From the NCBI GenBank assembly GCA_964594455.1, contig CAZQLY010000010.1, positions 1-51,853 of the forward strand: DNA of 51,853 bases, written 5' to 3'. Below are positions 7,375-51,402 of the stretch, piece after piece. This DNA comes from an uncultured Gammaproteobacteria bacterium. Its GTDB lineage: Bacteria > Patescibacteriota > Patescibacteriia > JAHIZJ01. A program made the translations under genes and the position numbers. The notes beneath the pieces were generated by a model. It was given only the letters and a program-made list of their open reading frames with translations, was not told where the DNA came from and did not search any database. How positions within the stretch are numbered: the first letter of the stretch is position 1; each line of letters starts with the position of its first letter.

Positions 7375-10300
7375 ATGAAAAAAACAGCAAAGATCAGTCT
7401 CTTCCTGGGAGTAGGCATTATCGCTCTAGTTATGGGACTTTCGCTGTCCAAAGACGCTGGGGCAGTAGTCCAAGTTGATCCGGATCCGCGCGTTTCTAGT
7501 CTAAGCGCTAGTCCGGCCAGCACCACGGCTGGGGCGACAACCACCTATACCCTTAGTTTTACTCTATCTGAAGCAATGGCTCAGGGTGGTAGAGTAATGA
7601 TCGTAGTCCAATCCAATGGAAATTGTGATGGTGATTGGAACTCATGTCAAGTTAATTTTGAAAATGTCACTGAAAATGACGTTTCCGGAATTAGCAACTT
7701 ACATGATTTTAATGCCTGGGATCAAGGCGTTGAGTTAGGCAAAAACTCATGGACAGCCGGTACTTATACCGTTACTCTATCTGGCGTTCAGAATCCTTCT
7801 CAAGTTGGTGGACATTATCGCGCCTATGCCGAGACTATGGCCACCGGAGAACAGCAGGAACCTTGTGAGCCAGGTGAAGAGTGTCCCCAAGGACCACGCA
7901 CCGCTTCGGCTCCTATTTTCTTTGGAACCGTAGGTGTTAAAGGCACAATCACCTTGCCTAACGGCGACCCAGCTTCAAACGTTAGCGTTGAAGTAAGAAG
8001 TGAGGACTTCTCTACCAACGAACATGCTAACACTGATGATTTGGGTTTTTATGCTGTAATGGCAAATCGCTTAACCAGCGGTACGGCTTATACGTTAGAA
8101 GTTTGGGTAGGTGGTAACGAAGATATGGAAAATTATGTGTCACCCGAACTTAAGCAATTCACCTATGCTGGCTCAACGTTAACAAAGAACGCTCAGCTAC
8201 GAACTGCTAGTAAAACCGTAACTGGTGTTCTGAAATATAATGATGGCACGGTTGTAAAAACCGGCGCCGAAGTTTGGGCCAACCCAATGGGTGGCGGTGG
8301 CGGTAAGAATGCTCAAGTAAGTGAAACGGATGGAACTTTCACCATAACCCTAGCGGGCGGCTCATATGATCTTGGTTTAAATGCAGGCTGGGTGTGTGAT
8401 GGCAATGGCTGTCACGAAAGAACGGTTAATTGGACCTACAATCAACCCTCGCAAATGGTTGAATTTGCTAACAACACCTCAACAGAGAACAAAACTGTTA
8501 ATTTTGTAGTCCAAAAAACCGATGCTATTGTAAAAGGTAAAATATTAAAGCCCAACGGTGATCCTATCGGCGGACACATCGAACTCAGCACTGGTGATGG
8601 TCCGGGCATGGGCGGGCACGTTGATCAATATAGCGGCGGCCGATTCAATATCAACGTCATGGCTGGAAAATATAAACTAATGTTTTGGCCTGACACTTGG
8701 GGTGATAACTCTGGTGATAATGCCCGTTACTACATGGACGAAATGGTAGTTAATGTATCCACGGATCAAACACTTAACCTTGGCACGATCACTTTGAAGA
8801 AAAAGACTTCAAAAATCACTGGTAGTGTTATAACAAAGGACGATGAACCAGTTGCTGACTTTAGAGTAAACTGCTGGGTACATGATGGATATGGTTGGGC
8901 TGAAGCTACAACCAACACCAGCGGGGTATATAACGTATGGATAGCTCCTGGTGAATGGGAATGCGGAGCCAGCCAAGGCCCAGATACAAATTACATACCC
9001 ATTAGTCAGGGTCCGCCAAAATTCTACCAAGTCAAAGCCAACCAGACCATAACAGCTGACGACATCGTTGTTCAGGAGGCAGATGCTCAACTGACCATTA
9101 AGGCGATTGATAAAGACGGTAATGCTATTGCTAGCCTCTGGGGTGGAGCTTATGCCCGCAAAAAAAGCGGTGGATTTGGACCAGGCAATGAGTTCCATAC
9201 CGGATTAGACCGTGGTGAGGGCACCCTTTCGCTGCTTGGTGGCAGTACTTATATGGTTGGTATACATATAGACAAACAAACCGACCTGCTAATGCAAGAT
9301 GAGATTGAAGTGGTTGTTCCAGAGGGCGCTCAAAAAACCGTTAAAGTAACATTAGTTGAGCCCGATGCGTTCGTTAGAATCATTCTAAAAGATCAATACG
9401 GAAAAAAATTAACTGATTTGGAAGCCGAGGTCGAGATTGGCTCAGAAGGATTTGGAATGTGGCGCCATGCCCGCACCCAAAATGGTGAGGCTACAATCGG
9501 CGTTCAGGGTGGAAACAAATACTTTGCCGGTTATTGGCTCAGAGACAATCCTGAATATGTCCAAACTCATCCTGAAGGAGCCCCATTCTTAGTAAAATCA
9601 GGACAAACTGTCACTCAAGTTATTACTGTATTCAGAGCAAATGCAGGAATTGAAATAACCCTTAAAGATCCTGATGGCAATTTAGTCGATTGGGGCCATG
9701 CCTGGTGCTCAAACCATAGGTATAAAGAGGATAAATTAAAAACCGATACCTTCAGCGGCACCGAAGGAAGCGGTCAGATAATCGATGCCGGCACTGAAAT
9801 ACGAGAAGGTCGTGGTCAAATCGCAGTAGTAGTAACTGATGATAATTATCAATACGAATGCGGTTCGGGCGGCGGTCCAGACATGATGGCAAATAACTGG
9901 CTACCACCTGATATGGTAGAAGTAAAAGCTAAAGAAGGCGAGACAACAAAAATAACCCTTCAGTTCAGTGAAGCAGATTCTACTATCACTGGCAGTGCAA
10001 AGCTGGATTCTGGCAGTGCAGTCAACTGGGGTTGGTGCTTTGCCTTCAGTCAAAATGGTCAGCACTCTGGAACAGAACTGATCGACGGTAAATTCAGCTT
10101 ACCTGTAAATTCAGGCACAACCTGGTTTGTTGGCTGTGATACAAATACTTCAGATGGCTTCTATCGATCAATAGAAAAAATGGTGTCTGTTCCTAAAGAA
10201 GGCACATATTCTACAAGTCTCATCCTGTCAAAAGAGCTCTGGGATCTGCCGGAAGGCTTAACCCTGCAGTTTGATGCCAGTCAACAACAGTCACTCACTC

Positions 10301-11858: not shown

Positions 11859-13016
11859 ATGGCAAATAAACAAAAGGTATTTTCAGGCATCCAACCAACC
11901 GGCGCTCTGCATATCGGAAATTACTTAGGCGCCATCAAACAATGGCTGGAACTGCAAAAAACTCATAACTGCGTTTTCTGCATTGTCGATTATCATGCAA
12001 TCACTGTCCCCTATGAGCCAAAAGAAATGCCAGACCGGATATTTGAAACCGCCTTGGATTATTTCGCGCTAGGCTTGGATCCGAAGAAATCAACCATTTT
12101 TATCCAATCACACGTGCCAGAACATACTGAGCTAGCTTGGCTTTTGAATACCATTACACCGATCAGTGAACTGGAGTTTATGACGCATTTTAAAGAAAAA
12201 GCCGGAATTAACCGTAACAAGTTAAAGAATACATTTAGAACTAAATTTGTAGAAAAATTTTATGAAAAGATAGTTGAATTAGATATAAAAGATGGTAAGT
12301 TAATCCAAGAAGCGTCTAACGATATAAAAAAATATTTGAACTCAAAAGAATTTGACGCGGAGATAAACAATCTGCTTTTAAGCTTTAGAGGCAGGGCAAA
12401 TGCCGCTTTACTTGATTATCCCGTGCTAATGGCTTCAGACATACTCCTTTACCACGCTAACCTAGTCCCAGTCGGTGAAGATCAAAAACAGCACGTGGAA
12501 TTAACCCGTACTATCGCCCGTAAATTTAATAACCAATTTGGCGAGACTTTGACCATTCCTGAAGTTAAATTATCTACTACCAAACGCATTATGTCTCTGG
12601 CTGACCCCACCAAGAAGATGAGCAAATCACTGGGACCCAAACATTACCTGGCTCTCAGCGATAGTCCGGAGACAATCCGAGAAAAAATATCCAAAGCTGT
12701 TACTGGCACCGGCACCGAAAAAGAGCTGCCAGACGGAACTATTAACCTGCTTGGTTTGTTGAAAGAATTTGGAACCGAAAGTGAGTTCAAGAAATTTGAA
12801 CAAGCAGCTAATAACGGATCAATCAAATATTCCGAGCTGAAAACTACTTTGGCCGAAGCCATTATCAAAAAACTAAAACCATTCCAGAAGAAACGAGCTG
12901 AACTAGCTAAGGACCCAAAGAAAATATGGAACACCCTGGAGGCGGGCGCTAAAAAAGCCCGACCCCTGGCTCAAAAAACTCTGACAGAGGCCAAGCAGAA
13001 GATGGGCTTGATTTAA
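11859..13016 (+). CDS. trpS: Tryptophan--tRNA ligase with an internal insertion of about 55-60 aa
   Basis: SGIQPTG, HIGN, YPVLMASDIL, VPVGEDQKQH and KMSKS motifs. Confidence 0.96.
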   Translation: MANKQKVFSGIQPTGALHIGNYLGAIKQWLELQKTHNCVFCIVDYHAITVPYEPKEMPDRIFETALDYFALGLDPKKSTIFIQSHVPEHTELAWLLNTITPISELEFMTHFKEKAGINRNKLKNTFRTKFVEKFYEKIVELDIKDGKLIQEASNDIKKYLNSKEFDAEINNLLLSFRGRANAALLDYPVLMASDILLYHANLVPVGEDQKQHVELTRTIARKFNNQFGETLTIPEVKLSTTKRIMSLADPTKKMSKSLGPKHYLALSDSPETIREKISKAVTGTGTEKELPDGTINLLGLLKEFGTESEFKKFEQAANNGSIKYSELKTTLAEAIIKKLKPFQKKRAELAKDPKKIWNTLEAGAKKARPLAQKTLTEAKQKMGLI

Positions 13017-42325: not shown

Positions 42326-42872
42326 TTATTCAAACAAATTATGCACTTTGTCCCAATCAAAATATTGATATGGTGATTTGTGATATTTATCTGGCAAGCC
42401 GGCTTTGATCGGATTCTGCTTTATATAATTGACAATGGCTTCAATATATTCATCGGTGTTAACAATCCGAGCATAAAAACGTTGTTGCCATACCGAGTAT
42501 GGGATACCATGTTTATTTCTCAGTTCATTTATGAAATATGATTTAATGGTATTATATTAATTGTGAAATGTTGTATCCTGCCGATTTTTCCAGCGCAGGC
42601 GCAGAGACCGGCGCTGGGTTTGATATTATATTACTCCGAGCGCAACTCTCTGTGGTTGCGCTCATGTTTTTAATCGAATTAACCAACAAATGCACGTGAT
42701 CAGGCATTATTTGGAACGAGAGAATGTTATATTGTTTTAAATTACCTGATTTGAAAATGATACAAGATAATAAATTTGCGTATTCGGTTTTTTCAAATAT
42801 TGAAACATTTTCTTTTGCCTTAAACGTCACGAAATATGGGTATTTGTCTTGGTATATTCTGCGTTGAGTCAT
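42326..42872 (-). pseudogene. REP-associated tyrosine transposase (RAYT/Y1), frameshifted
   Basis: YFVTF and IMPDHVHLL in the first frame; after a 1-nt shift at about 42551 it continues WQQRFYARI...NYIKQNPIKAGL to a stop at 42326. Confidence 0.85.
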
Positions 42873-42946
42873 AAAAAAACGGGAATGTTTTATTGCCCGC
42901 CATCTTCAAAATATCAATTTTTTATTATTTTATCAAGTGATTTTAA

Positions 42947-43333
42947 TTACTCTCTATTATTATAATATTTCTTTCTATGAACGCAATATATTTGACCATC
43001 CTTCTTCCAGCGCTTCTGCTCACGTTTAACAAACTTCCTGACCCCATTTTCCCGGATAAACTCCAAATTTTCAAGCATACTCATGCCATACTTTGTCCGA
43101 TATCTTTTATCAAGATTCTTTAGCCTCCGGCAAGGATAATTTTCACACCCATCAGAACAAAACCTCATATTCTTTTTTTTCAATATCTGACAACTTCTGA
43201 TAATACATTTCCTCCCATAACTGGACTCGTAGGCATCCATTTTTCTGCAACCAGAACATCTATTGTTTTCCCTGAGATAACCCAGACAAATTCCACAATT
43301 CATTCCACAGGGAGCTATCAATTCTTGTTTCAT
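42947..43333 (-). CDS. DUF3795-type cysteine-rich protein
   Basis: APCGMNCGIC, CSGC, CIIRSC, FC..C..YPC motifs. Confidence 0.8.
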   Translation of the reverse strand: MKQELIAPCGMNCGICLGYLRENNRCSGCRKMDAYESSYGRKCIIRSCQILKKKNMRFCSDGCENYPCRRLKNLDKRYRTKYGMSMLENLEFIRENGVRKFVKREQKRWKKDGQIYCVHRKKYYNNRE

Positions 43334-43336
43334 GTA

Positions 43337-44191
43337 CTATTGAACTACACCCTGTATTAAATCAACAACATATTCCATTGACCCATCGTTTAAGATCAAA
43401 ACATCATAGAGTTTCTCATACTCTGTTAATCGTTCGTTAACTTCCTCGTTTAAAAATCCAACTTTTATCAAATTGTCATAATCAAAACCTGTGATCATTC
43501 CCACGTCCCCAATACTGTCTCCTAATAAAATAACATTAGTGCGCTTCCTAACCTGGTCATAGAAGGGTAAGTTTCTGACTACGGTTTCATCCTTGTTCAG
43601 AGTGTGTACGATCGGCTGTTCTACCTTGACTGCTTTCCTGTTTTCGTCCCATTCAAAAGCATTACCCACGATATAAATGTTGGGGTAGAGTCGACCCTGT
43701 CTCTTTAAATACAATTTGATCGCATCATTGCCCAAGCCACTCGAGGATAATATGATAATCGGAATCTTGCTCTCGGCTAATAAATCTAGCAGCTCAGGCG
43801 AATCCGTTCTAAATTCTATCAGACCTGACTCAACGACACTTTCTATATCCTTCCGGGAAAGTCCGGATTCAATCAGTAATTTGAAATGAGTAGTCCACCA
43901 TTCCTTCATGGCTCGCCTCTTCTCATCAAGGGAAATGGTCGGATCGTGTTCAATCTTGTTATATTTTTCGTACAGAGCTTTGGCCTTAGCTGGATAATCA
44001 GGCGTTAAATAGTTATGATCACGCAGAACCGAAATGAGTGAAGGCACTTTTTTCCCTTTGACAAACGCCTTGGTCAAAGTCCGATCAAAATCAGCCAGGA
44101 CATGGATTTTTTCTGGCCCATCTTTAATCATGGATGCTCTGACCGTTTCAATCAGTTCTGGGTTCACTTCGATTATTTTTTGTGAAGCCAT
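43337..44191 (-). CDS. Pyrimidine 5'-nucleotidase (cN-III/NT5C3-like HAD)
   Basis: ADFDRTLT, MKEWW, LLGDSIGDVGM and KVGFLN motifs. Confidence 0.88.
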   Translation of the reverse strand: MASQKIIEVNPELIETVRASMIKDGPEKIHVLADFDRTLTKAFVKGKKVPSLISVLRDHNYLTPDYPAKAKALYEKYNKIEHDPTISLDEKRRAMKEWWTTHFKLLIESGLSRKDIESVVESGLIEFRTDSPELLDLLAESKIPIIILSSSGLGNDAIKLYLKRQGRLYPNIYIVGNAFEWDENRKAVKVEQPIVHTLNKDETVVRNLPFYDQVRKRTNVILLGDSIGDVGMITGFDYDNLIKVGFLNEEVNERLTEYEKLYDVLILNDGSMEYVVDLIQGVVQ

Positions 44192-44192
44192 A

Positions 44193-44513
44193 TTAACCTT
44201 CCTTAGTTCTCTTTAAAACCCCGCTGATCCTCTTATACTCCCGTCTTTTATTCTTGGCCATTTTTTTCTCAATCTCTGTACCCAAATCAATACCCAATAT
44301 TTCAGCCAAACTCAACAGATAAATCACCACGTCAGCGATCTCTTCTCCCAGATCGGGCAATTTCTTGCGATAAGCCTCATAGGCTTCGGCTAATTCCCCG
44401 TAGATATAGCAAAACTCACGTTCAATATCTTTAACATTAAAGCCTTGCTTGATTTTGTGCTGATAAATTTCTTTTTGGAGTTTTTTTAGATTGTTTAACA
44501 TATCATTTGTCAA
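44193..44513 (-). CDS. MazG-like nucleotide pyrophosphohydrolase
   Basis: GELAEAYEA...GEEIADVVIYL. Confidence 0.85.
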   Translation of the reverse strand: MTNDMLNNLKKLQKEIYQHKIKQGFNVKDIEREFCYIYGELAEAYEAYRKKLPDLGEEIADVVIYLLSLAEILGIDLGTEIEKKMAKNKRREYKRISGVLKRTKEG

Positions 44514-44919: not shown

Positions 44920-45267
44920 ATGATAGGAAAATTAATCAACATCTTCAGAGTTAATAATAGAATCGGGGTGGTGGACCTGGCAAACAAGCTTCAGATCAGC
45001 CGTGTGTCTCTTTTTCGCATTGAAAACGGCCTGCGTCAGCCATCGGAAAAAACCGCTATTCGAGCATTCAAAATTCTGGGCTTGAACGAAGAAGAAATTT
45101 ACCATGTTTTTGTCTTTAACGATCTGCTGGCCCGGGGCGAAATATCAGCCGGCGCCAGAAATAGAGAAGCCTCGGCGTTTCTGGACAGATTGATTAAAAA
45201 AGACAAAAATAGTAAAATTATCTATAGTTACTTCAAACGCGCTCTTAATGCCAAAAGAAATGCCTAA
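44920..45267 (+). CDS. XRE-family HTH regulator
   Basis: DLANKLQISRVSLFRIENGLRQPS. Confidence 0.85.
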   Translation: MIGKLINIFRVNNRIGVVDLANKLQISRVSLFRIENGLRQPSEKTAIRAFKILGLNEEEIYHVFVFNDLLARGEISAGARNREASAFLDRLIKKDKNSKIIYSYFKRALNAKRNA

Positions 45268-45706
45268 ATCCGCAAAAAACAAAAAGAAGCCCAAAAAAGG
45301 CAAAATCCTATTTGTTGAAGACGATAGGTTTCTCGCGGAAATGTTCCGGCAGAAACTGACGATTGACGGCTACCAGCCTGTTATCGCTCACACGGCCGTT
45401 TCAGCAGTTTTGGCTTTGCGCGATGAAAGCCCAGACGCCGTGGTACTGGACGTGGTCCTGCCCGATTCTGAATGCTGGATGATCGTGGAATATCTGCGCC
45501 GTAAGAAAGGCACCCGGCCCATGCCAATACTAATACTTACCAATTGGGATAATCCGGAATACCGGCGCAAAGCCCGTGATTTGAAAGCCGACGCTTTCGT
45601 GGTCAAAGCCAACACCGATCCCCAACAGCTGGTTGAAATGATGGAAAAGCTGATAGCCGAATACAAAAAACGGCAAAAAGCCGCCGGATACAAAACGCGG
45701 TCCTGA
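45248..45706 (+). CDS. Stand-alone response regulator receiver
   Basis: VEDD, VLDVVLP, ILTN and VVK motifs; start may be 45260. Confidence 0.88.
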   Translation: MPKEMPKSAKNKKKPKKGKILFVEDDRFLAEMFRQKLTIDGYQPVIAHTAVSAVLALRDESPDAVVLDVVLPDSECWMIVEYLRRKKGTRPMPILILTNWDNPEYRRKARDLKADAFVVKANTDPQQLVEMMEKLIAEYKKRQKAAGYKTRS

Positions 45707-45729
45707 GATCCGCGCCTTTCTGCGCTTGC

Positions 45730-46107
45730 TTATTGAACTATTTTTTTAATCCTTTCCATCATTTCCCGCAAGGGAATTTTTGATTTGACAATGAAATCCA
45801 GAGCGCCCAAATCCATGGCCTTTTTTGCCAAATCATGCTTGTCCAGATTTGTAACGATAACAGCCGGAATCTGTTTTGTTTTCGGATTCCCTTTCAATTT
45901 TTCTAAAACCTCAATGCCTCCCATACCAGTCATTAAGAGATCAATTAGGACTATATCGGGCTGGCTTTTTTCGGCCAGCTTCAGCCCCTTCTGGCCATTA
46001 TCCGCTGAAATAAAATCATACCCATCAAGCTCGAATTTCGTCTTGTAGAGCAGTATCTGGTCTTTATCGTCTTCAATGAGAAGTATTTTAACCATAATCA
46101 GCTTCAT
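45730..46107 (-). CDS. Stand-alone response regulator receiver
   Basis: IEDD, LIDLLM, VTN and IVK motifs. Confidence 0.92.
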   Translation of the reverse strand: MKLIMVKILLIEDDKDQILLYKTKFELDGYDFISADNGQKGLKLAEKSQPDIVLIDLLMTGMGGIEVLEKLKGNPKTKQIPAVIVTNLDKHDLAKKAMDLGALDFIVKSKIPLREMMERIKKIVQ

Positions 46108-46146
46108 TATACACCTTATGGCGCTGAATATCCAGGTTTGGTCAAT

Positions 46147-46536
46147 CTACCTCTTATATAACAGCCGTTTGACCTTTTCTACCAATTCTGACGGCGTTAA
46201 ATCAGCTTTTATGATGTAGCCAGCTGATCCCAGATTTCTGGCTTGTTCCATAGCCTCGTTTTTTACCAGATTGGTAAGCACCAATACGGGTATCGCTTTA
46301 ATTCCCGCGTCTTTTTTTAATTCCTTTAATATATCCATGCCGTTTTCTCCTACCAGAATCAAGTCCAACAATATCAGGTCGGGCCGGTACGTATTGGCGG
46401 ATTTTATTCCCTCGCTGCCGGTTCTAACGGCGATGAAATTAAAACCTTCCAGTTCGAACTTGGCTTTGTACATGGCGATCTGGTCGGGATCGTCTTCGAT
46501 CAGGAGAATTTTAGGTTCATGATTATGCATAATCAT
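46147..46536 (-). CDS. Stand-alone response regulator receiver
   Basis: IEDD, LLDLIL, LTN and IIK motifs; ATGA overlap with the kinase stop. Confidence 0.92.
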   Translation of the reverse strand: MIMHNHEPKILLIEDDPDQIAMYKAKFELEGFNFIAVRTGSEGIKSANTYRPDLILLDLILVGENGMDILKELKKDAGIKAIPVLVLTNLVKNEAMEQARNLGSAGYIIKADLTPSELVEKVKRLLYKR

Positions 46537-48761
46537 TTTGTAATCGGCAAGCTTAAATAAAACTTCGATCCTTTCCCCTCTTCGCTTTCCACCCACGCTT
46601 TGCCGCGATGCCCCTCTATGATTTCTCTGACGATGAACAGCCCCAGCCCGCTCCCGTCCGTGTACATGGCCGTGGCGTTTGACGCGCGGGAGAATTTCTG
46701 AAACAGTTTTTTTACCTCGTCTTTCGGAATGCCGATACCGTCATCCGAGACGCTGACAACAAGATCGTTTTTAACTTTTCGTATATCAACTTTCACCCGG
46801 CCCTTCGTCTTCCTCTTAGCTCTGGCTTCTTTGACCATTTCCGTGGACGGAGTGTATTTCAGCGCGTTCGAGATGAAGTTAGAAACCGCCTGTTCCAGGA
46901 ATTCAGCGTTGCCGACTATCTGCGGAAGGGATGCGGCTGGTTTCTGCCACACCAAATCGATCTTCCTTTGCTCCGCTTCCAGCTTGAACCCCTTAACCGC
47001 TCTGTCCACTACTTCCTCAAGCTGGATTTTGGGTGTTTTGGCATCAATGTCGAATTTACGGCTGTCCAGCTCGGAGGCGGCCAGGATGTCATTGATAATT
47101 TGATCGAGTTTCGCTCCTTTCTGGCTGGCTGATTCGATGAATTCGGCCTGTTTTTCCTTGGGCAATTTGGCCATATCCCCGTCCTGGAACATGGAGATGA
47201 TCCCCCGAATTACTGAAACCGGAGTGCGGAGCTGGTGGGAGGCGATATCAAGGAATTCCGACTGAGCCTTGAGGAGCTTTTCTAGCTGGACGTTTTTGGC
47301 TTTGATGTTGTGGGTTTGGGCGCTGACTTTCTGTTGGAGGGTGCGGTTAAATTGCCTAATCTCATCGTACAGCCGCGCGTTTTCCACGGCAATTGATGCC
47401 TGGTTAGTCACGGCTTCAAGTAGACGCATGTCTTCCTTTGTGTAGGCGTCCCGGCTGACTTTTTGTCCCAGCACGATTATGCCAATCAGCTTGTCCTTAA
47501 CTAGCAGGGGCAGGCAGATATGCGCTTCTATGCGACGCATATTAGTTTGCAGTTTGGCGATTTCCGCTTTTTCGCCGTTGCCGTTATTCTGCAGGCTCTC
47601 CAGCTCCTGATAAAGAACTGGCATCCTGTTTTTTATCAGATAACCGGTTAAAAAATTGTTTCTTACCAGGGAAATGCCGTTTGATTCAGTAAAACCCTCA
47701 GTGCGGTATATTTTGAAATTGGAAGATGGGTTGTCATAAAGCAGGACTCCTGATCTGTCCAAACGCATGGTGTTTTTTATGGTTTTGATGATGGAATCTA
47801 TAATATCGGACAGGTCAATCGTGAATGTCAGTTTTTTGCCCAGCTCTTCGAGAGTATTCTGATAAGTATACAGGCTGGCGAAAAAGTATTTATTGGCAAT
47901 TCTTTCAAAGCTTCTTTTTATAGGATCAAATAATATTATGCCCGCAAGGAGTACGATCGGACCCCATGTCCCAGGGGGTATTATTTCTTTAAAATAAGCA
48001 ATTTCCAGCCGGTAAAGACCAAGGGCAATAAGCAAAACCGCTACAATGCTGCTGACATATACCGAGGTTCGTTTAACGATGAGGCGGATGTCCATCAAGC
48101 GATGCTTAACAATCGCATATCCTACAGTACCAATAAAAATTAATGGCGCTATATTCGTCAATGTAATAAGGCTGGAATTTTTAAAGATCAGCGTCATCAC
48201 CACATTGAAAAACAAAATGAAAGTAAAACTAATTGCAAGCCCAGCTAAAATATATCGTAGCTGTGCTTTTTGTACGCCAGTTGTTTGTCGAATTTTTTTA
48301 ACCAACAAAATAATCGAGCTCACTAAGTAATAAAGAAATATAGCAAAGAAATAGAAAATGCCTGGCCCTTGGCTAGGGACGATATTCCCGTCAACAATCT
48401 CAACATTAGTAAACATCCAAGGACTAATTGCCAACAACATACTGAACAGCGTCAATGCCACAATAAGCGCTACTTCTTTATGGGAAACTACTAGCTTGCG
48501 TTCCGGAAAATTCTTAATAAACAAGTAAAATGAAGGTGTTAGTATAGATGCAAAAAACATGGTCATGCGGATCCATAACAGTACTTGGTTTGCCTCAGTA
48601 AAATATGAGGTTAAATAATTTGATCCAATAGCACCGGCGAACCCCAATGAGAATATAAATAAACTAATGTGAATAACAGATTTTCTGTTGTTCAATAACA
48701 CTATGGCCGCTAAGGCAATGGTGCTGACAACAGATAGAATTGTAAAAATTAATCCCGCCAT
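46533..48761 (-). CDS. Sensor histidine kinase: multi-TM (7TM-type) N-terminus, GAF, HisKA, HATPase
   Basis: Multiple TM helices; GAF (LPLLVKDKLIGIIVLG...AVENARLY); H-box ASHQLRTP; NALKY, DDGIGI and GSGLGL motifs. Confidence 0.95.
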   Translation of the reverse strand: MAGLIFTILSVVSTIALAAIVLLNNRKSVIHISLFIFSLGFAGAIGSNYLTSYFTEANQVLLWIRMTMFFASILTPSFYLFIKNFPERKLVVSHKEVALIVALTLFSMLLAISPWMFTNVEIVDGNIVPSQGPGIFYFFAIFLYYLVSSIILLVKKIRQTTGVQKAQLRYILAGLAISFTFILFFNVVMTLIFKNSSLITLTNIAPLIFIGTVGYAIVKHRLMDIRLIVKRTSVYVSSIVAVLLIALGLYRLEIAYFKEIIPPGTWGPIVLLAGIILFDPIKRSFERIANKYFFASLYTYQNTLEELGKKLTFTIDLSDIIDSIIKTIKNTMRLDRSGVLLYDNPSSNFKIYRTEGFTESNGISLVRNNFLTGYLIKNRMPVLYQELESLQNNGNGEKAEIAKLQTNMRRIEAHICLPLLVKDKLIGIIVLGQKVSRDAYTKEDMRLLEAVTNQASIAVENARLYDEIRQFNRTLQQKVSAQTHNIKAKNVQLEKLLKAQSEFLDIASHQLRTPVSVIRGIISMFQDGDMAKLPKEKQAEFIESASQKGAKLDQIINDILAASELDSRKFDIDAKTPKIQLEEVVDRAVKGFKLEAEQRKIDLVWQKPAASLPQIVGNAEFLEQAVSNFISNALKYTPSTEMVKEARAKRKTKGRVKVDIRKVKNDLVVSVSDDGIGIPKDEVKKLFQKFSRASNATAMYTDGSGLGLFIVREIIEGHRGKAWVESEEGKGSKFYLSLPITK
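46882..47042. repeat. Direct repeat copy 1 (161 bp, inside the kinase)
   Basis: 158/161 identical to 51591-51751. Confidence 0.95.
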
Positions 48762-48766
48762 AACGC

Positions 48767-49864
48767 TTATAGTAGTTTTTCAAATTGAATATAAAGACGT
48801 TCCGATGATAATTCTTTACCCAGCGCGATTCGTTTTATGGTGTAGGCCATAATCGCCCCGCCAAGGAAAGAAGCAAGAGCCAGCTGGGGATGACCCGCTA
48901 ACTCTTTACCCACCAGTTTAAGAGACTCAATCATGCGTGGCGGCACATTTTCCGGACCTATTATCTTCATGGCAATTTGGGCTATATCTTCATACTTCAT
49001 CTCAGGAGGTAAATTTTCTATTATTTTTCCATCAACCCGACCATTAAAAATGGGAGTTGTTTTGTCGATATCATATCGCTCAATATCAATAATCGCTCCA
49101 TCACCAAGGTCGGTTGCCATGATAACTGGGATGCCACATTCACGTGCTTTGAGACGTAATTTAATTTTCATCTTGATATCATCAAATGCATCAATAATAG
49201 CATCAACTGCAAAAGGTTGTTTTAAAAACGATTCAAGGTTGTCATCAGCTAATGGTTTGGTGTAGAGATCGAGTTGTGCAAAGGGGTTTAGATCATAAAT
49301 TTTCTGGGCAGCATAGGTGGTTTTATACATGCCAACAGCATCAAGTGACGCGTGGATACGGTTCATATTGCTTGCTTCAATGATATCGGGGTCCATGAGC
49401 TTCATCTGATCACACATACCACTAATAGCCAGCGTTAACGCGGATGCCTGGCCAACACTTAATCCAATAATACCAACTTTAAAATGACGTAGTTTTTCTT
49501 GCTCTTCCTTGGTAACGAGATTATGATTTCGTGCGGTGCGAATTGTATAATATTCTTCTTCTGTCAGGCTATGAACAAGGCTATTTTTCCAAGGATAATA
49601 CACCCAAACTCCTTCACGGGTTAGGTCTTCTGATCTATCTTTGCGCTTTTCAATATATTCCTTGACTGCTTGCCTACGCTGTGTGGGATTCTCTTTGAAC
49701 TCAGGGTGCTCTATTACATATAATTCTTCAAGTAGTGATGCAAACGCGTCAATAATGTGCGGATCGCGCTCCTTTTTTAATGTCTCCAGTGATGCAGCAT
49801 CTTCCGCGCGGCTCGTTATAAATAGTCTCGGTGTCACCTCCTCAAATTTTGCGCGGTTAGTCAT
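48767..49864 (-). CDS. ThiF/E1-like adenylyltransferase, Rv1355c/MoeY-type
   Basis: WVYYPW..SLVH, RN.NL.T.EEQ, IIGLSVG, DPD..EASNMNR, IPVIMATD and DIERYD motifs. Confidence 0.88.
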   Translation of the reverse strand: MTNRAKFEEVTPRLFITSRAEDAASLETLKKERDPHIIDAFASLLEELYVIEHPEFKENPTQRRQAVKEYIEKRKDRSEDLTREGVWVYYPWKNSLVHSLTEEEYYTIRTARNHNLVTKEEQEKLRHFKVGIIGLSVGQASALTLAISGMCDQMKLMDPDIIEASNMNRIHASLDAVGMYKTTYAAQKIYDLNPFAQLDLYTKPLADDNLESFLKQPFAVDAIIDAFDDIKMKIKLRLKARECGIPVIMATDLGDGAIIDIERYDIDKTTPIFNGRVDGKIIENLPPEMKYEDIAQIAMKIIGPENVPPRMIESLKLVGKELAGHPQLALASFLGGAIMAYTIKRIALGKELSSERLYIQFEKLL

Positions 49865-49875
49865 TAGTTTGTCGT

Positions 49876-51402
49876 TTATTTTATTTTCGGATTAAGTACA
49901 TACTTCTGTTTATCCGATGAAAAGTAATCCCGATCCTGAAATGGCCTTAGGATTACTTTTACGAGATCTTCACGTGTGACTGTCTCGGTTAGCTTATTAA
50001 ATTCACTATTTACATTTTTTATGTTTTTTACAATCAGCTCTTGAACCTGCCTCAATAATTCGTCACTTTCTTGTTTCCCACGAGAGAGTTCAACATAGAT
50101 TTCAAGCTGCTGATCTGTTTTTTTATTTTCAGCTGTTTTCATGGCAAACCGACTGGTCACTTGTCCTTTTAATTTTTCATCAAGTAAAACTGGTTTTATA
50201 TTTTCCGGATAGACATTAACCGCATAAATAGTGGCCATTACATTGCTACGACCAAATAAATAGGCAAACGGAAATGTCCAGATAGATGGGTTACCCAGCT
50301 CCTTGGTAATGACCTCATTAGCTATGCCCTGCTTATTTAGCACTTCCATCACTTGATCAAAAGTCATAACACCACCAACGTCTTTCGTGTTATAGCGTAC
50401 CAGTGGTAGTCCCCCAAGATTAGTTAATACGAGCTCATCATCAACCGCTTCGATAAATCGGCCGACCGGATTAAACTGCACGACCGAGGGGATGTGGTCA
50501 GAGTTGAATAAGGATTTGTTAAGCTCAATATTATCAAATATCTGTTTTCGAATATACGAACTGAGCGGCGTTTCCATACCCACAATTCCTCCTTCTGAAG
50601 AACCTAGAACCGACGTAATATCTTTATATCGGTTTGTCATCTTTCCATTAGTATACACATAATCGCGCCAGTGCTCGGTAAATATTTCACCACCGACAAG
50701 TGCTTTTAATTTAAGTGCCTCTAGGTCAATTCCCTCATTGTTGGCCGAATCAATAATGTCTTTTACAAACGCGGGATAACCAACAATAAAGGTTTGATCA
50801 TAGAGATGTGCCACCGTTTTCAGGATTTTCAGTATTTCTTCCAAGTGGATCCCTGGTGCCATCACTGTCATGGGGTGTCCTTTTTGAGCCATGAGTTTCC
50901 CGGAGCCATACATCATCTCGCCAGCAGTCCACACACCCATACCGAGAGAAATGAGGAGTAATGTTGATTTTAATTGAATCGAAAAATTATTTACATATAA
51001 GATTTCAAGGGCCTTTGCAATATTCAAATCTTGCTCAAGCAGTCGTGGCCAATAAAATGGATTGCCGGTTGATCCAGAGCTTGAGGAAATAACATTTGAT
51101 TTTGACAGATCTCCATTGAGGCACAGGTCATGTAAAGAATATTTCATTAAATAGCCTTCTTTATCTGTAGTAGGTACCTGCACAAAATCCTCAAAGGTTT
51201 TAATCTTCGAGTGTTCTATTTTATGTTTTTTCAAAAAATCTTGATATGCAGGAACGGTCTCTGCAACTATATGAAAAGTCTTAATCGCATTCTCCTGCCC
51301 CTTACCCATCCACATACCTCCAGGAGCTTTTGAGAGAGCGATATTATCCTGTTCCGCGTTCGCATTGAAAAACTCTTGAAATTGTTCATTGGGAGTAGGC
51401 AT
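49876..51402 (-). CDS. Phenylacetate--CoA ligase-like (PaaK/F390) adenylate-forming enzyme
   Basis: SSSSGSTGNPFYW, GYP, GGE, GSSEGG, PLVRYNTKD, GRS and NVYPE motifs. Confidence 0.9.
   Translation of the reverse strand: MPTPNEQFQEFFNANAEQDNIALSKAPGGMWMGKGQENAIKTFHIVAETVPAYQDFLKKHKIEHSKIKTFEDFVQVPTTDKEGYLMKYSLHDLCLNGDLSKSNVISSSSGSTGNPFYWPRLLEQDLNIAKALEILYVNNFSIQLKSTLLLISLGMGVWTAGEMMYGSGKLMAQKGHPMTVMAPGIHLEEILKILKTVAHLYDQTFIVGYPAFVKDIIDSANNEGIDLEALKLKALVGGEIFTEHWRDYVYTNGKMTNRYKDITSVLGSSEGGIVGMETPLSSYIRKQIFDNIELNKSLFNSDHIPSVVQFNPVGRFIEAVDDELVLTNLGGLPLVRYNTKDVGGVMTFDQVMEVLNKQGIANEVITKELGNPSIWTFPFAYLFGRSNVMATIYAVNVYPENIKPVLLDEKLKGQVTSRFAMKTAENKKTDQQLEIYVELSRGKQESDELLRQVQELIVKNIKNVNSEFNKLTETVTREDLVKVILRPFQDRDYFSSDKQKYVLNPKIK

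Follow-up and report, generated by a model that had tools for sequence, protein, structure and literature searches.

A PaaK-like ligase, a ThiF-family enzyme and a 7TM histidine kinase linked in Patescibacteria: a candidate signal-synthase and sensor system

The closest described relatives of the enzymes discussed here make oxazolones. TrzS converts N-acyl-tryptophan to N-acyl tryptazolone by an ATP-dependent cyclisation followed by an O2-dependent desaturation, TyzB/TyzC and OxzB carry out the equivalent reactions on N-acyl tyrosine or phenylalanine, and an N-acyltransferase resembling FeeM and acyl-homoserine lactone synthases (TrzA, TyzA or OxzA) supplies the N-acyl amino acid substrate (PMC12856293; PMC10404671; 10.1101/2020.06.11.147165). 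Oxazolones are described as labile compounds that resemble signalling molecules and have no known role (PMC12856293; 10.1101/2020.06.11.147165), and their physiological role has been called a major unresolved question (PMC12856293). In bacteria of the candidate phyla radiation (CPR), 51 CqsA homologues have been reported beside CqsS-like kinases, and LuxI and PpyS homologues beside sensory kinases (Bernard et al. 2020, PMC7567580). Here, we describe an operon on contig C10 of a Patescibacteria genome in which both themes meet. The window is this complete contig (51,853 bp), and the genome comprises 1.34 Mb in 58 contigs and is 91.6% complete. Our tentative proposal is that the operon encodes a self-contained signalling module, in which a pair of enzymes makes an aromatic N-acyl amino acid or oxazolone that is sensed by the module's own seven-transmembrane (7TM) kinase.

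Five minus-strand genes lie head to tail at 45730-51402, in the order PaaK-like ligase, ThiF, sensor histidine kinase and two receivers (RR1 and RR2), and are separated in turn by 11 bp, 5 bp, an ATGA stop/start overlap and 39 bp (Table 1). A sequence-only reading of this DNA had described such a run and offered it as a candidate undescribed signal-synthase and sensor system. Its genes and gaps were all recovered, its family calls (PaaK-like ligase, Rv1355c-type ThiF, 7TM-GAF kinase) were borne out by profile and fold matches, and its interpretation is partly supported by what follows.

The arrangement of ligase, ThiF and kinase is far beyond chance, given that a whole paralogous cassette stands in the same genome and that the linkage recurs in 19 of 21 ligase-bearing genomes. 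The second cassette (contig C6, 2434-7747, minus strand; loci L002 and L004) has the identical gene order. For the phylum, 200 Patescibacteria genomes were drawn evenly and the window's own was added, with thresholds of E <= 1e-30 for the long ThiF and E <= 1e-10 for the ligase. Among the 200, 21 have the ligase and 16 the long ThiF, all 16 within the ligase-bearing 21; of the five genomes with a ligase but no long ThiF, two carry a ThiF next to the ligase that is shorter and diverged. HisKA_7TM matches occur in 92 of the 200, and the 19 genomes mentioned above have a HisKA_7TM kinase gene on the ligase strand, no more than about 5 kb away. As for the two exceptions, the contig of G047 stops 1.5 kb past ThiF, and in G086 the sole PF16927 match is on a different contig, its ligase locus having a 566-residue kinase open reading frame (ORF; a BLAST match in the GAF-type cluster) about 3 kb off, on the opposite strand and beside a receiver gene. 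Gene orders include ligase-ThiF-FDO-kinase (FDO being a nitroreductase-superfamily flavin desaturase), ThiF-ligase-kinase, and ThiF followed after 6.5 kb by ligase-kinase. Because order varies among lineages, we argue that the linkage itself has been under selection. The sequence-only reading had allowed that the association might be unique to this genome; it is instead found across many Patescibacteria lineages.

A wider view comes from 561 ThiF relatives (one genome per species); for the top 80, the locus was retrieved together with flanks of 10 kb, and counts of ThiF loci given below rest on these 80. They comprise 26 Bacteroidota loci and 54 others, the latter mostly with CPR titles but including five labelled Gammaproteobacteria and one Dormiibacterota (labels unconfirmed). 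Their ORFs were clustered, and Pfam and NCBIfam names were taken from one representative per cluster. A HisKA_7TM kinase is present in 40 of the 54 non-Bacteroidota loci, and 11 others have less than 3.4 kb of downstream DNA. In the closest relatives of the window locus, L006 (9938-13266) and L007 (11090-13289), the kinase gene is split into two or three ORFs, that of L006 being joined with ThiF; the splits are either assembly frameshifts or real decay.

The strongest tie between kinase and enzymes is found in the sensor domain. The window kinase matches HisKA_7TM (PF16927, 43.5 bits; cut-off 28.6), GAF (46-50 bits), HisKA (51.2 bits) and HATPase_c (100.3 bits), all above their cut-offs; the 7TM domain covers about residues 1-230 and GAF residues 316-461, and a reading of the sequence finds the H, N and G boxes. 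By the same kind of reading, all three receivers in the window have the acidic pocket, the phospho-acceptor Asp and the conserved Thr and Lys. We added 40 HisKA_7TM kinase loci from genomes without the ligase and built quick LG+G4 trees of 80 full-length kinases, 48 enzyme-linked and 32 unlinked; we left out the L006 ORF, which is fused or frameshifted, and all kinase ORFs shorter than 500 residues, among them split or truncated ones such as the L007 halves and ORFs that consist of a 7TM domain alone. A combined tree of 7TM domain plus core gave eight label changes, and for that reason separate domain trees were built. In the 7TM-only tree (251 columns), 44 of the 48 linked kinases, the window's among them, fall on one side of a branch (SH-aLRT 99) and all 32 unlinked ones on the other, and the linked clade spans both a type of about 545 residues without GAF and a GAF type of about 730. 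In the core tree (last 240 residues) the same 44 require 12 changes, and forcing them to be monophyletic costs 562 log-likelihood units (AU p = 4e-24).

Pairwise identities tell the same story. Between the window cassette and its C6 paralogue they are 55% for the 7TM domain, 54% for the ligase and 46% for ThiF, versus 84% for GAF and 83% for HisKA; between the window and L005 they are 67%, 62% and 56%, versus 26% and 35%. Over 33 loci, ThiF distances correlate better with 7TM distances (rho 0.60) than with core distances (rho 0.27). The co-evolution of sensor and enzymes that the sequence-only reading had proposed to look for is thus seen at the level of domains, with a linked 7TM clade and a polyphyletic core, and the trees indicate that the sensor domain travels with the enzymes while the transmitter is swapped. 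Since this 7TM subfamily is exclusive to these enzymes and sits on at least two transmitter types, the membrane domain and the pathway are functionally tied. Positions conserved specifically in the clade are S28, F69 and F117, and no clade-specific Lys or Cys was found in the 7TM domain; a non-covalent aromatic ligand would fit this pattern better than covalent attachment.

Turning to the enzymes, the ThiF protein is, by family membership, a TrzS/OxzB-type cyclase. It matches NCBIfam NF005901 ("Rv1355c family") over its whole length (1.4e-86, 291 bits, model positions 5-339 of 722), and its score lies under the full-length cut-off of 476 because it spans only half of the model. The Pfam ThiF model gives 1.3e-23, sulfur-carrier (ThiF/MoeB) and E1 families match at 1e-20 or worse, and identity to the ThiF halves of 74 ThiF-nitroreductase (FDO) fusions is 31-40% over 77-100% of its length. 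The nearest solved relative by profile is TcdA (3.6e-14), and there are also profile matches to the MccB and PaaA structures. In an alignment of 13 diverse members, G131, G134, G138, D158, N166, N168, R169, K181 and D228 are invariant, and no Cys is. We take these residues to have their usual motif roles and presume that D228 is equivalent to TrzS D217. The residues for adenylation are kept, and oxazolone formation is predicted. The guess of the sequence-only reading that the product is a small acylated or amide compound would fit TrzS and OxzB, the nearest characterised relatives (PMC12856293; 10.1101/2020.06.11.147165).

No FeeM/LuxI-fold N-acyl amino acid synthase gene is present in the window cassette. 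The ligase has a PaaK-type ANL fold in its AlphaFold model (pLDDT 89.7), for which the best Foldseek matches are BT_0428 (4r1l, 1.9e-21, TM 0.65/0.75) and PaaK2 (2y4o, 1.4e-20), followed by HCL, AjiA1, NatL2 and ClxA. Sequence models reach it faintly: NCBIfam PaaK NF041878 gives 1.2e-16 and 60.3 bits (cut-off 700), TIGR02155 51.4 bits (cut-off 646.3) and Pfam AMP-binding_C_2 18.5 bits (cut-off 25), and there is a weak, sub-threshold match to FlxY; nearly all of its database relatives carry no Pfam domain. Seven residues (S109, G110, G113, E277, D341, R385 and K498) are invariant across a 37-sequence alignment, and conservation of E239 reaches at least 90%; the P-loop, ribose-binding Asp, hinge Arg and C-terminal Lys do not vary in the family. 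The equivalog score for PaaK is not reached, and paa catabolic genes are absent from the window neighbours scanned. PaaK-family enzymes of the NatL2 type couple an aryl adenylate to another molecule with no need for CoA. We infer that the window ligase activates an aromatic carboxylate and forms an N-acyl amino acid, replacing OxzA, TyzA or TrzA.

Gene neighbourhoods and fusions indicate that ThiF and the ligase act together. A ligase gene lies within 3 kb of ThiF in 46 of the 54 non-Bacteroidota loci; L006 and L065, in which the ThiF ORF continues into its neighbour, have one as well. ThiF-ligase fusion proteins of 879-889 residues form four protein clusters (P0199, P0214-P0216), and a 1252-residue ORF (L065:7340-11098) joins a ScyB-like (ELFV) dehydrogenase, the ligase and ThiF, although as a single metagenome-assembled record it calls for caution. 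An FDO (350 residues, matching the C-terminal half of Rv1355c at model positions 374-711, 2.5e-50) is adjacent or fused in 36 of the 54; a search for longer forms of ThiF gave the 74 ThiF-FDO fusions and no kinase fusion. Genes for three enzymes that convert aromatic amino acids to aromatic carboxylic acids adjoin the ligase: an FlxA-like tyrosine ammonia-lyase (8e-185) directly upstream in 10 of the 80 loci, a ScyB-like tryptophan dehydrogenase (2e-83) directly upstream in eight, and, on the neighbourhood map, an aminotransferase dependent on pyridoxal phosphate (PLP) on the opposite strand in four.

The kinase family keeps similar company elsewhere. In locus L135 (C1:2999-8955) the genome has a third HisKA_7TM kinase, of 918 residues, directly upstream of which lies a gene for a BioF/Kbl/CqsA-like PLP acyltransferase (C1:5003-6193; NF005526, 4e-61, below cut-off), itself preceded by three tandem stand-alone HisKA_7TM-like ORFs of 207-222 residues. 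G175 (L112) has a similar layout, except that the gene is LuxI/FeeM-like instead of CqsA-like. Among HisKA_7TM kinases without a ligase (loci L093-L132, from other Patescibacteria; upstream genes named by Pfam from one representative per cluster), the gene directly before the kinase encodes a LuxI/FeeM-like N-acyl amino acid synthase in three loci, a PLP-dependent Orn/Arg/DAP decarboxylase in three, a pyruvoyl histidine decarboxylase in three, a BioF/CqsA-like acyltransferase in two and a short ThiF protein in four, and in others one of three unknown families, u3 (338 residues), u4 (234-237) and u10 (263). A small-molecule enzyme next to a 7TM kinase may be a general rule in CPR bacteria.

A counterpart exists in a second phylum. 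In 23 of the 26 Bacteroidota loci (a subset of L031-L084, for example L078:9299-15393), the other three being cut by contig ends, the gene order runs from an opposite-strand receiver through ThiF or a 754-residue ThiF-FDO fusion (NF005901, 8e-221), a 237-residue protein, a 7TMR-DISM kinase of about 720 residues and a receiver-kinase hybrid, often to a further receiver. Carriers include Pedobacter, Sphingobacterium, Algoriphagus, Chitinophaga, Niabella and others; many of these loci, for example in Pedobacter, show no FDO. The AF2 model of the 237-residue protein (pLDDT 89.9) has FeeM and BjaI as its best fold matches, and these are the structures reported nearest to TyzA (PMC10404671). At the level of sequence the protein has no match in Pfam (E up to 5), NCBIfam or PDB and only a weak GNAT lead in a protein atlas, and hhalign finds no relation between its family and u4. 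Operons of both phyla thus combine oxazolone-type genes with a 7TM kinase, but neither the acylating enzyme nor the 7TM domain is the same in the two.

These observations lead to the following proposed mechanism. The ligase would adenylate an aromatic carboxylic acid and join it to the amino group of an amino acid, as its fold, motifs and context suggest, to give an N-(aryl)acyl amino acid; in this it would stand in for the FeeM/LuxI-like N-acyltransferase of known pathways. ThiF, judged by its family, would adenylate the carboxylate of the N-acyl amino acid and close the ring, yielding a 5(4H)-oxazolone (azlactone). Within the membrane, the 7TM domain would bind either this hydrophobic product or its N-acyl amino acid precursor, a step suggested by conserved linkage and domain-level co-inheritance, and the kinase would then phosphorylate the two single-domain receivers, as in CqsA/CqsS or LuxM/LuxN. 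The two diverged cassettes would form two channels, in a genome that also holds the CqsA-like synthase and third HisKA_7TM kinase. More doubtful, though possible, is the broader proposition that oxazolones or their N-aroyl amino acid precursors constitute a new class of bacterial signal sensed by dedicated 7TM kinases in at least two phyla.

It is important to set out what weighs against this mechanism, beginning with the chemistry. PaaK-family enzymes are classically CoA ligases, and direct amide formation is something that we infer. An FDO is absent from both cassettes, and a tblastn search of the 91.6%-complete genome for two FDO representatives gave no match (1e-3). Two PF00881 matches proved unrelated to FDO: a 151-residue ORF (154-residue open frame) with a nitroreductase-domain match, and, on C15, a pyruvyl-transferase fusion in a glycan cluster. 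Absence of FDO accompanies the long GAF-containing kinase type: as a description of related rows, 26 of 31 short-kinase rows have FDO in the locus (it is also beside L111), against 5 of 13 GAF-type rows. Because there is no partner flavin desaturase, the product here would be a saturated, labile oxazolone or a derivative of one and not an arylidene. TrzS cyclises before it desaturates (PMC12856293), so a system without FDO could still yield the saturated, labile azlactone. Such an azlactone is unstable, and the chemistry in this genome may differ from the TrzS/OxzB model; it is the least certain step. Nor is any enzyme supplying aromatic acids linked to either cassette in this genome. Two candidates for the feedstock were set aside as housekeeping, namely an aminotransferase on C2 that adjoins glutamate dehydrogenase and a histidine ammonia-lyase on C1 that adjoins hisS.

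Further points of this kind concern the sensing. None of the three receivers in the window has an output domain. Three loci (L009, L054 and L072) are without a HisKA_7TM kinase despite at least 5.5 kb of downstream DNA, and four linked kinases fall outside the linked clade: the second one of L038, and those of L085, L086 and L087, where the ligase is accompanied by a short ThiF at most. Ligase distances correlate weakly with 7TM distances (rho 0.20, reached in 36 of 2000 permutations). The trees are quick ones on related sequences, the group of 44 was defined from the 7TM tree itself, and L111 was relabelled as linked after inspection, an FDO and a 435-residue ThiF lying beside its kinase. The 7TM-coding part is also the segment of the kinase gene physically nearest to the enzyme genes, so that recombination inside the kinase gene would by itself preserve the linkage. 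Co-segregation of sensor and enzymes would also be expected of a kinase that responds to another cue and regulates the pathway. That a product is made, released and sensed is a prediction; a synthase together with its sensor is the best explanation that we can offer, short of being probable and unproven.

The strongest alternative, which we rate as less likely than sensing of the product, is a regulated secondary metabolism. The oxazolone or N-acyl amino acid would then serve some purpose other than signalling, for example as antimicrobial, pigment, membrane lipid, antioxidant or stress protectant, and the kinase would sense some other cue and switch the pathway on or off; a host or environmental aromatic compound, a pathway substrate or envelope stress would serve as that cue. 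Operons with their own two-component regulator are common, a module-specific sensor would co-segregate with its enzymes in just the same way, and no exporter gene is seen in the cassette. Sub-inhibitory antibiotics induce oxazolones in proteobacteria, and the tyz locus has been linked to oxidative stress (PMC12856293; 10.1101/2020.06.11.147165). Yet in the cassettes, as in the Bacteroidota operons, every receiver is either single-domain or part of a kinase fusion and none has a DNA-binding output, so a simple transcriptional loop is not evident, and the HisKA_7TM relatives adjoin CqsA-like and LuxI/FeeM-like homologues of autoinducer synthases (PMC7567580), which by analogy favours sensing of the product. 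In addition, the two diverged cassettes retain near-identical GAF and HisKA parts, which looks like two inputs with one output.

Tyrosine ammonia-lyase and a ligase supply the chromophore of photoactive yellow protein, and it is conceivable, if very improbable, that the kinase retains the product here as a prosthetic group, in its 7TM or GAF domain, and is thereby a light or redox sensor. The restriction of the 7TM subfamily to enzyme-linked kinases would agree with this, arylidene oxazolones absorb near 360 nm (10.1101/2020.06.11.147165), and the FlxA-like ammonia-lyase of 10 loci would extend the conjugation. However, the desaturase for a conjugated chromophore is missing in the window genome and in seven other GAF-type loci, the short kinases have no GAF domain, and the clade is marked by S28, F69 and F117 and not by a Lys or Cys for covalent attachment. 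We think it just as improbable that ThiF is an MccB-/PaaA-like or E1-like modifier of polypeptides, the ligase adding an acyl group and the target being a ribosomally synthesised and post-translationally modified peptide, the kinase or the receivers. Most characterised ThiF-like enzymes do act on polypeptides or tRNA (10.1101/2020.06.11.147165; PMC12596934), and the matches to MccB and PaaA point the same way, but the match to the small-molecule TrzS family (1e-86) stands against 1e-20 or worse for sulfur-carrier and E1 families, ThiF has no invariant Cys, the cassette gaps of 5-39 bp contain no small ORF, and no ThiS/MoaD-like protein was found in the 91.6%-complete genome. What we would hardly credit at all is a set of chance neighbours with housekeeping roles in phenylacetate catabolism, thiamin or molybdenum cofactor (Moco) sulfur transfer and an unrelated two-component system. 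Automatic database names ("phenylacetate-CoA ligase", "molybdopterin/thiamine biosynthesis adenylyltransferase") suggest it; the equivalog scores far under cut-off, the linkage kept in 19 of 21 genomes, the fused enzymes and the duplicated cassette speak against it. So does the lack of sulfur-carrier, paa and Moco genes noted in the sequence-only reading, which holds as far as we searched: PF02597 has no match in the 91.6%-complete genome, and paa and Moco genes were not seen among the scanned neighbours.

Table 1. Positions of the genes and other features discussed, in the window (contig C10) and in the second cassette (contig C6)
Feature	Contig	Positions	Strand	Size and basis
PaaK-like ligase, PaaK-fold (ANL superfamily), predicted to adenylate aryl acids	C10	49876-51402	-	508 aa
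ThiF, stand-alone TrzS/OxzB-type, predicted ATP-dependent cyclase	C10	48767-49864	-	365 aa; equals N-terminal half of Rv1355c-family proteins
Sensor histidine kinase, HisKA_7TM-GAF-HisKA-HATPase_c	C10	46533-48761	-	742 aa; Pfam
RR1, single-domain receiver, start overlaps kinase stop (ATGA)	C10	46147-46536	-	129 aa; Pfam Response_reg 6.7e-18
RR2, single-domain receiver	C10	45730-46107	-	125 aa; Pfam Response_reg 1.4e-21; 69% identical to C6 receiver (BLASTP)
Third receiver, convergent with operon, membership doubtful	C10	45248-45706	+	Pfam
HTH_3 gene preceding third receiver, predicted co-transcribed with it, probably outside the unit	C10	44920-45267	+
Upstream block conserved with C6 cassette and locus L007	C10	51405-51476	-	blastn-short of upstream regions and direct reading
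Copy of a 161-nt kinase-gene segment	C10	51591-51751	-	98% identical to 46882-47042; repeat search
C6 ligase	C6	6227-7747	-	54% identical to window ligase
C6 ThiF	C6	5107-6234	-	46% identical to window ThiF
C6 kinase	C6	2854-5103	-	67% identical to window kinase
C6 receiver (single)	C6	2434-2805	-	69% identical to window RR2

Several features surround the operon. The third receiver, which the sequence-only reading had placed facing the run, is indeed there, but its membership of the unit is doubtful. Neither it nor the HTH_3 gene has a counterpart next to the C6 cassette or in the mapped related loci, and on that ground both are left out of the unit, outside which they probably lie. The conserved block upstream of the ligase holds an extended -10-like element, TGGTATTGT in the window and TGGTATAAT in the C6 cassette and L007, and the block is likely to be the operon promoter and leader. 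A generic scan for promoters and terminators was uninformative (28 promoter-like sites against 16.4 expected). The contig ends 451 bp upstream of the ligase gene, and about 100 nt from that end is the direct repeat of a kinase-gene segment, whose flanks are not kinase-like; either recombination between kinase genes or the assembly process could have left it there.

Downstream, at 42552-44513, the window encodes a 106-residue ORF, a DUF3795 protein, a UMPH-1-type pyrimidine 5'-nucleotidase and a MazG-like protein, all unrelated to the module. Just upstream of the C6 cassette, an ORF at 8058-8876 (+) looks like a tyrosine recombinase by sequence reading alone, and that name is a candidate label. 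A tryptophan-tRNA ligase gene lies slightly downstream of the kinase in nine loci (cluster c11; L008, L010, L016, L022, L033, L035 and others), and DnaK and DnaJ genes lie upstream in several related loci; the homologue of the tRNA ligase in the window is at 11877-13010, 34 kb away. This neighbourhood is probably lineage synteny, a tie to tryptophan being the less likely reading. The sequencing runs listed for contig C10 are all of DNA, with no RNA run among them; they come from a single study and are labelled as microbial mat metagenome.

How much of this is new? Oxazolone biosynthesis and synthase-kinase pairs in CPR bacteria are already known, and the combination of ligase, ThiF and 7TM kinase was not found in print. 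The word "undescribed" in the sequence-only reading thus stands for the module, which a search of the literature on Rv1355c, oxazolone synthetase, CPR quorum sensing and HisKA_7TM did not turn up, and not for the ThiF chemistry or for CPR synthase-kinase pairs (PMC7567580), both of which are published. In the accessible text, "histidine kinase" is absent from the de Rond preprint (as is "two-component"), PMC12856293, PMC10404671 and the ThiF review PMC12596934; "ligase", "signal" and "Patescibacteria" are absent from the same review, and "ThiF" from PMC7567580. Supplementary lists of neighbourhoods could still bear on novelty (Bernard 2020 Table S4, Kleetz 2025 Figure S1, de Rond Table S1).

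The conserved operon link to 7TM kinases in two phyla provides a testable answer to the question of what oxazolones do, and the culturable Bacteroidota (Pedobacter, Sphingobacterium, Algoriphagus, Chitinophaga) allow tests without growing a CPR bacterium. If the proposed mechanism is true, it would be the first physiological role for natural oxazolones, and at least two phyla would be ones in which the module arose or spread: Patescibacteria, where a PaaK-fold ligase is combined with HisKA_7TM, and Bacteroidota, where a FeeM-like protein is combined with 7TMR-DISM. A 1.3-Mb genome would then hold two orthogonal oxazolone-type channels in addition to a CqsA-like one, a large investment in communication for an ultra-small and probably host-dependent cell; with genomes so tiny and host dependence presumed, the signalling genes that CPR bacteria retain are informative on lifestyle. 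A fourth, chemically new type of synthase would be added to the CPR synthase-kinase pairs. In addition, a ThiF-type cyclase with a PaaK-fold ligase is a new predicted way of making N-acyl amino acids and azlactones, of possible interest for biocatalysis, and a sensor that is kept with its enzymes while transmitters swap would show clearly, in a natural case, how two-component systems are rewired module by module.

Finally, the module can be compared with the systems that it most resembles. With OxzAB of Pseudoalteromonas rubra and TyzACB and TrzAS of Actinomycetota it has in common the TrzS (Rv1355c) cyclase family, the matching desaturase adjacent or fused in the related loci counted above, and inputs derived from aromatic amino acids, as indicated by the genes neighbouring those loci. 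It differs in having a PaaK-fold adenylating ligase instead of a FeeM-like N-acyltransferase, in its stand-alone ThiF with a desaturase not found in the genome, and in being joined to a 7TM histidine kinase. TcdA, the tRNA t6A dehydratase, likewise performs an ATP-dependent cyclisation to an oxazolone-type ring (PMC12596934), but its substrate is tRNA and it is without the N-terminal extension of about 110 residues common to the Rv1355c family. The ligase shares its PaaK fold with FlxY of the flexirubin system, to which it has its weak match, and with NatL2, AjiA1 and ClxA of the benzoxazole pathways, and the pairing of its family with an FlxA-like tyrosine ammonia-lyase in 10 loci again recalls flexirubin; it is only 14-20% identical to the solved PaaK-family members and about 70 residues longer. 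Unlike the known autoinducer pairs, the window would use a different, two-enzyme and ATP-driven synthase, and the predicted product, an N-aroyl amino acid or oxazolone, belongs to no known class of autoinducer. As in CqsA/CqsS, LuxM/LuxN and the CqsA-, LuxI- and PpyS-like pairs of CPR bacteria, however, the putative synthase genes stand immediately upstream of a multi-pass membrane kinase and its receivers, and the HisKA_7TM family also adjoins CqsA-like and LuxI/FeeM-like genes in this genome and its relatives.

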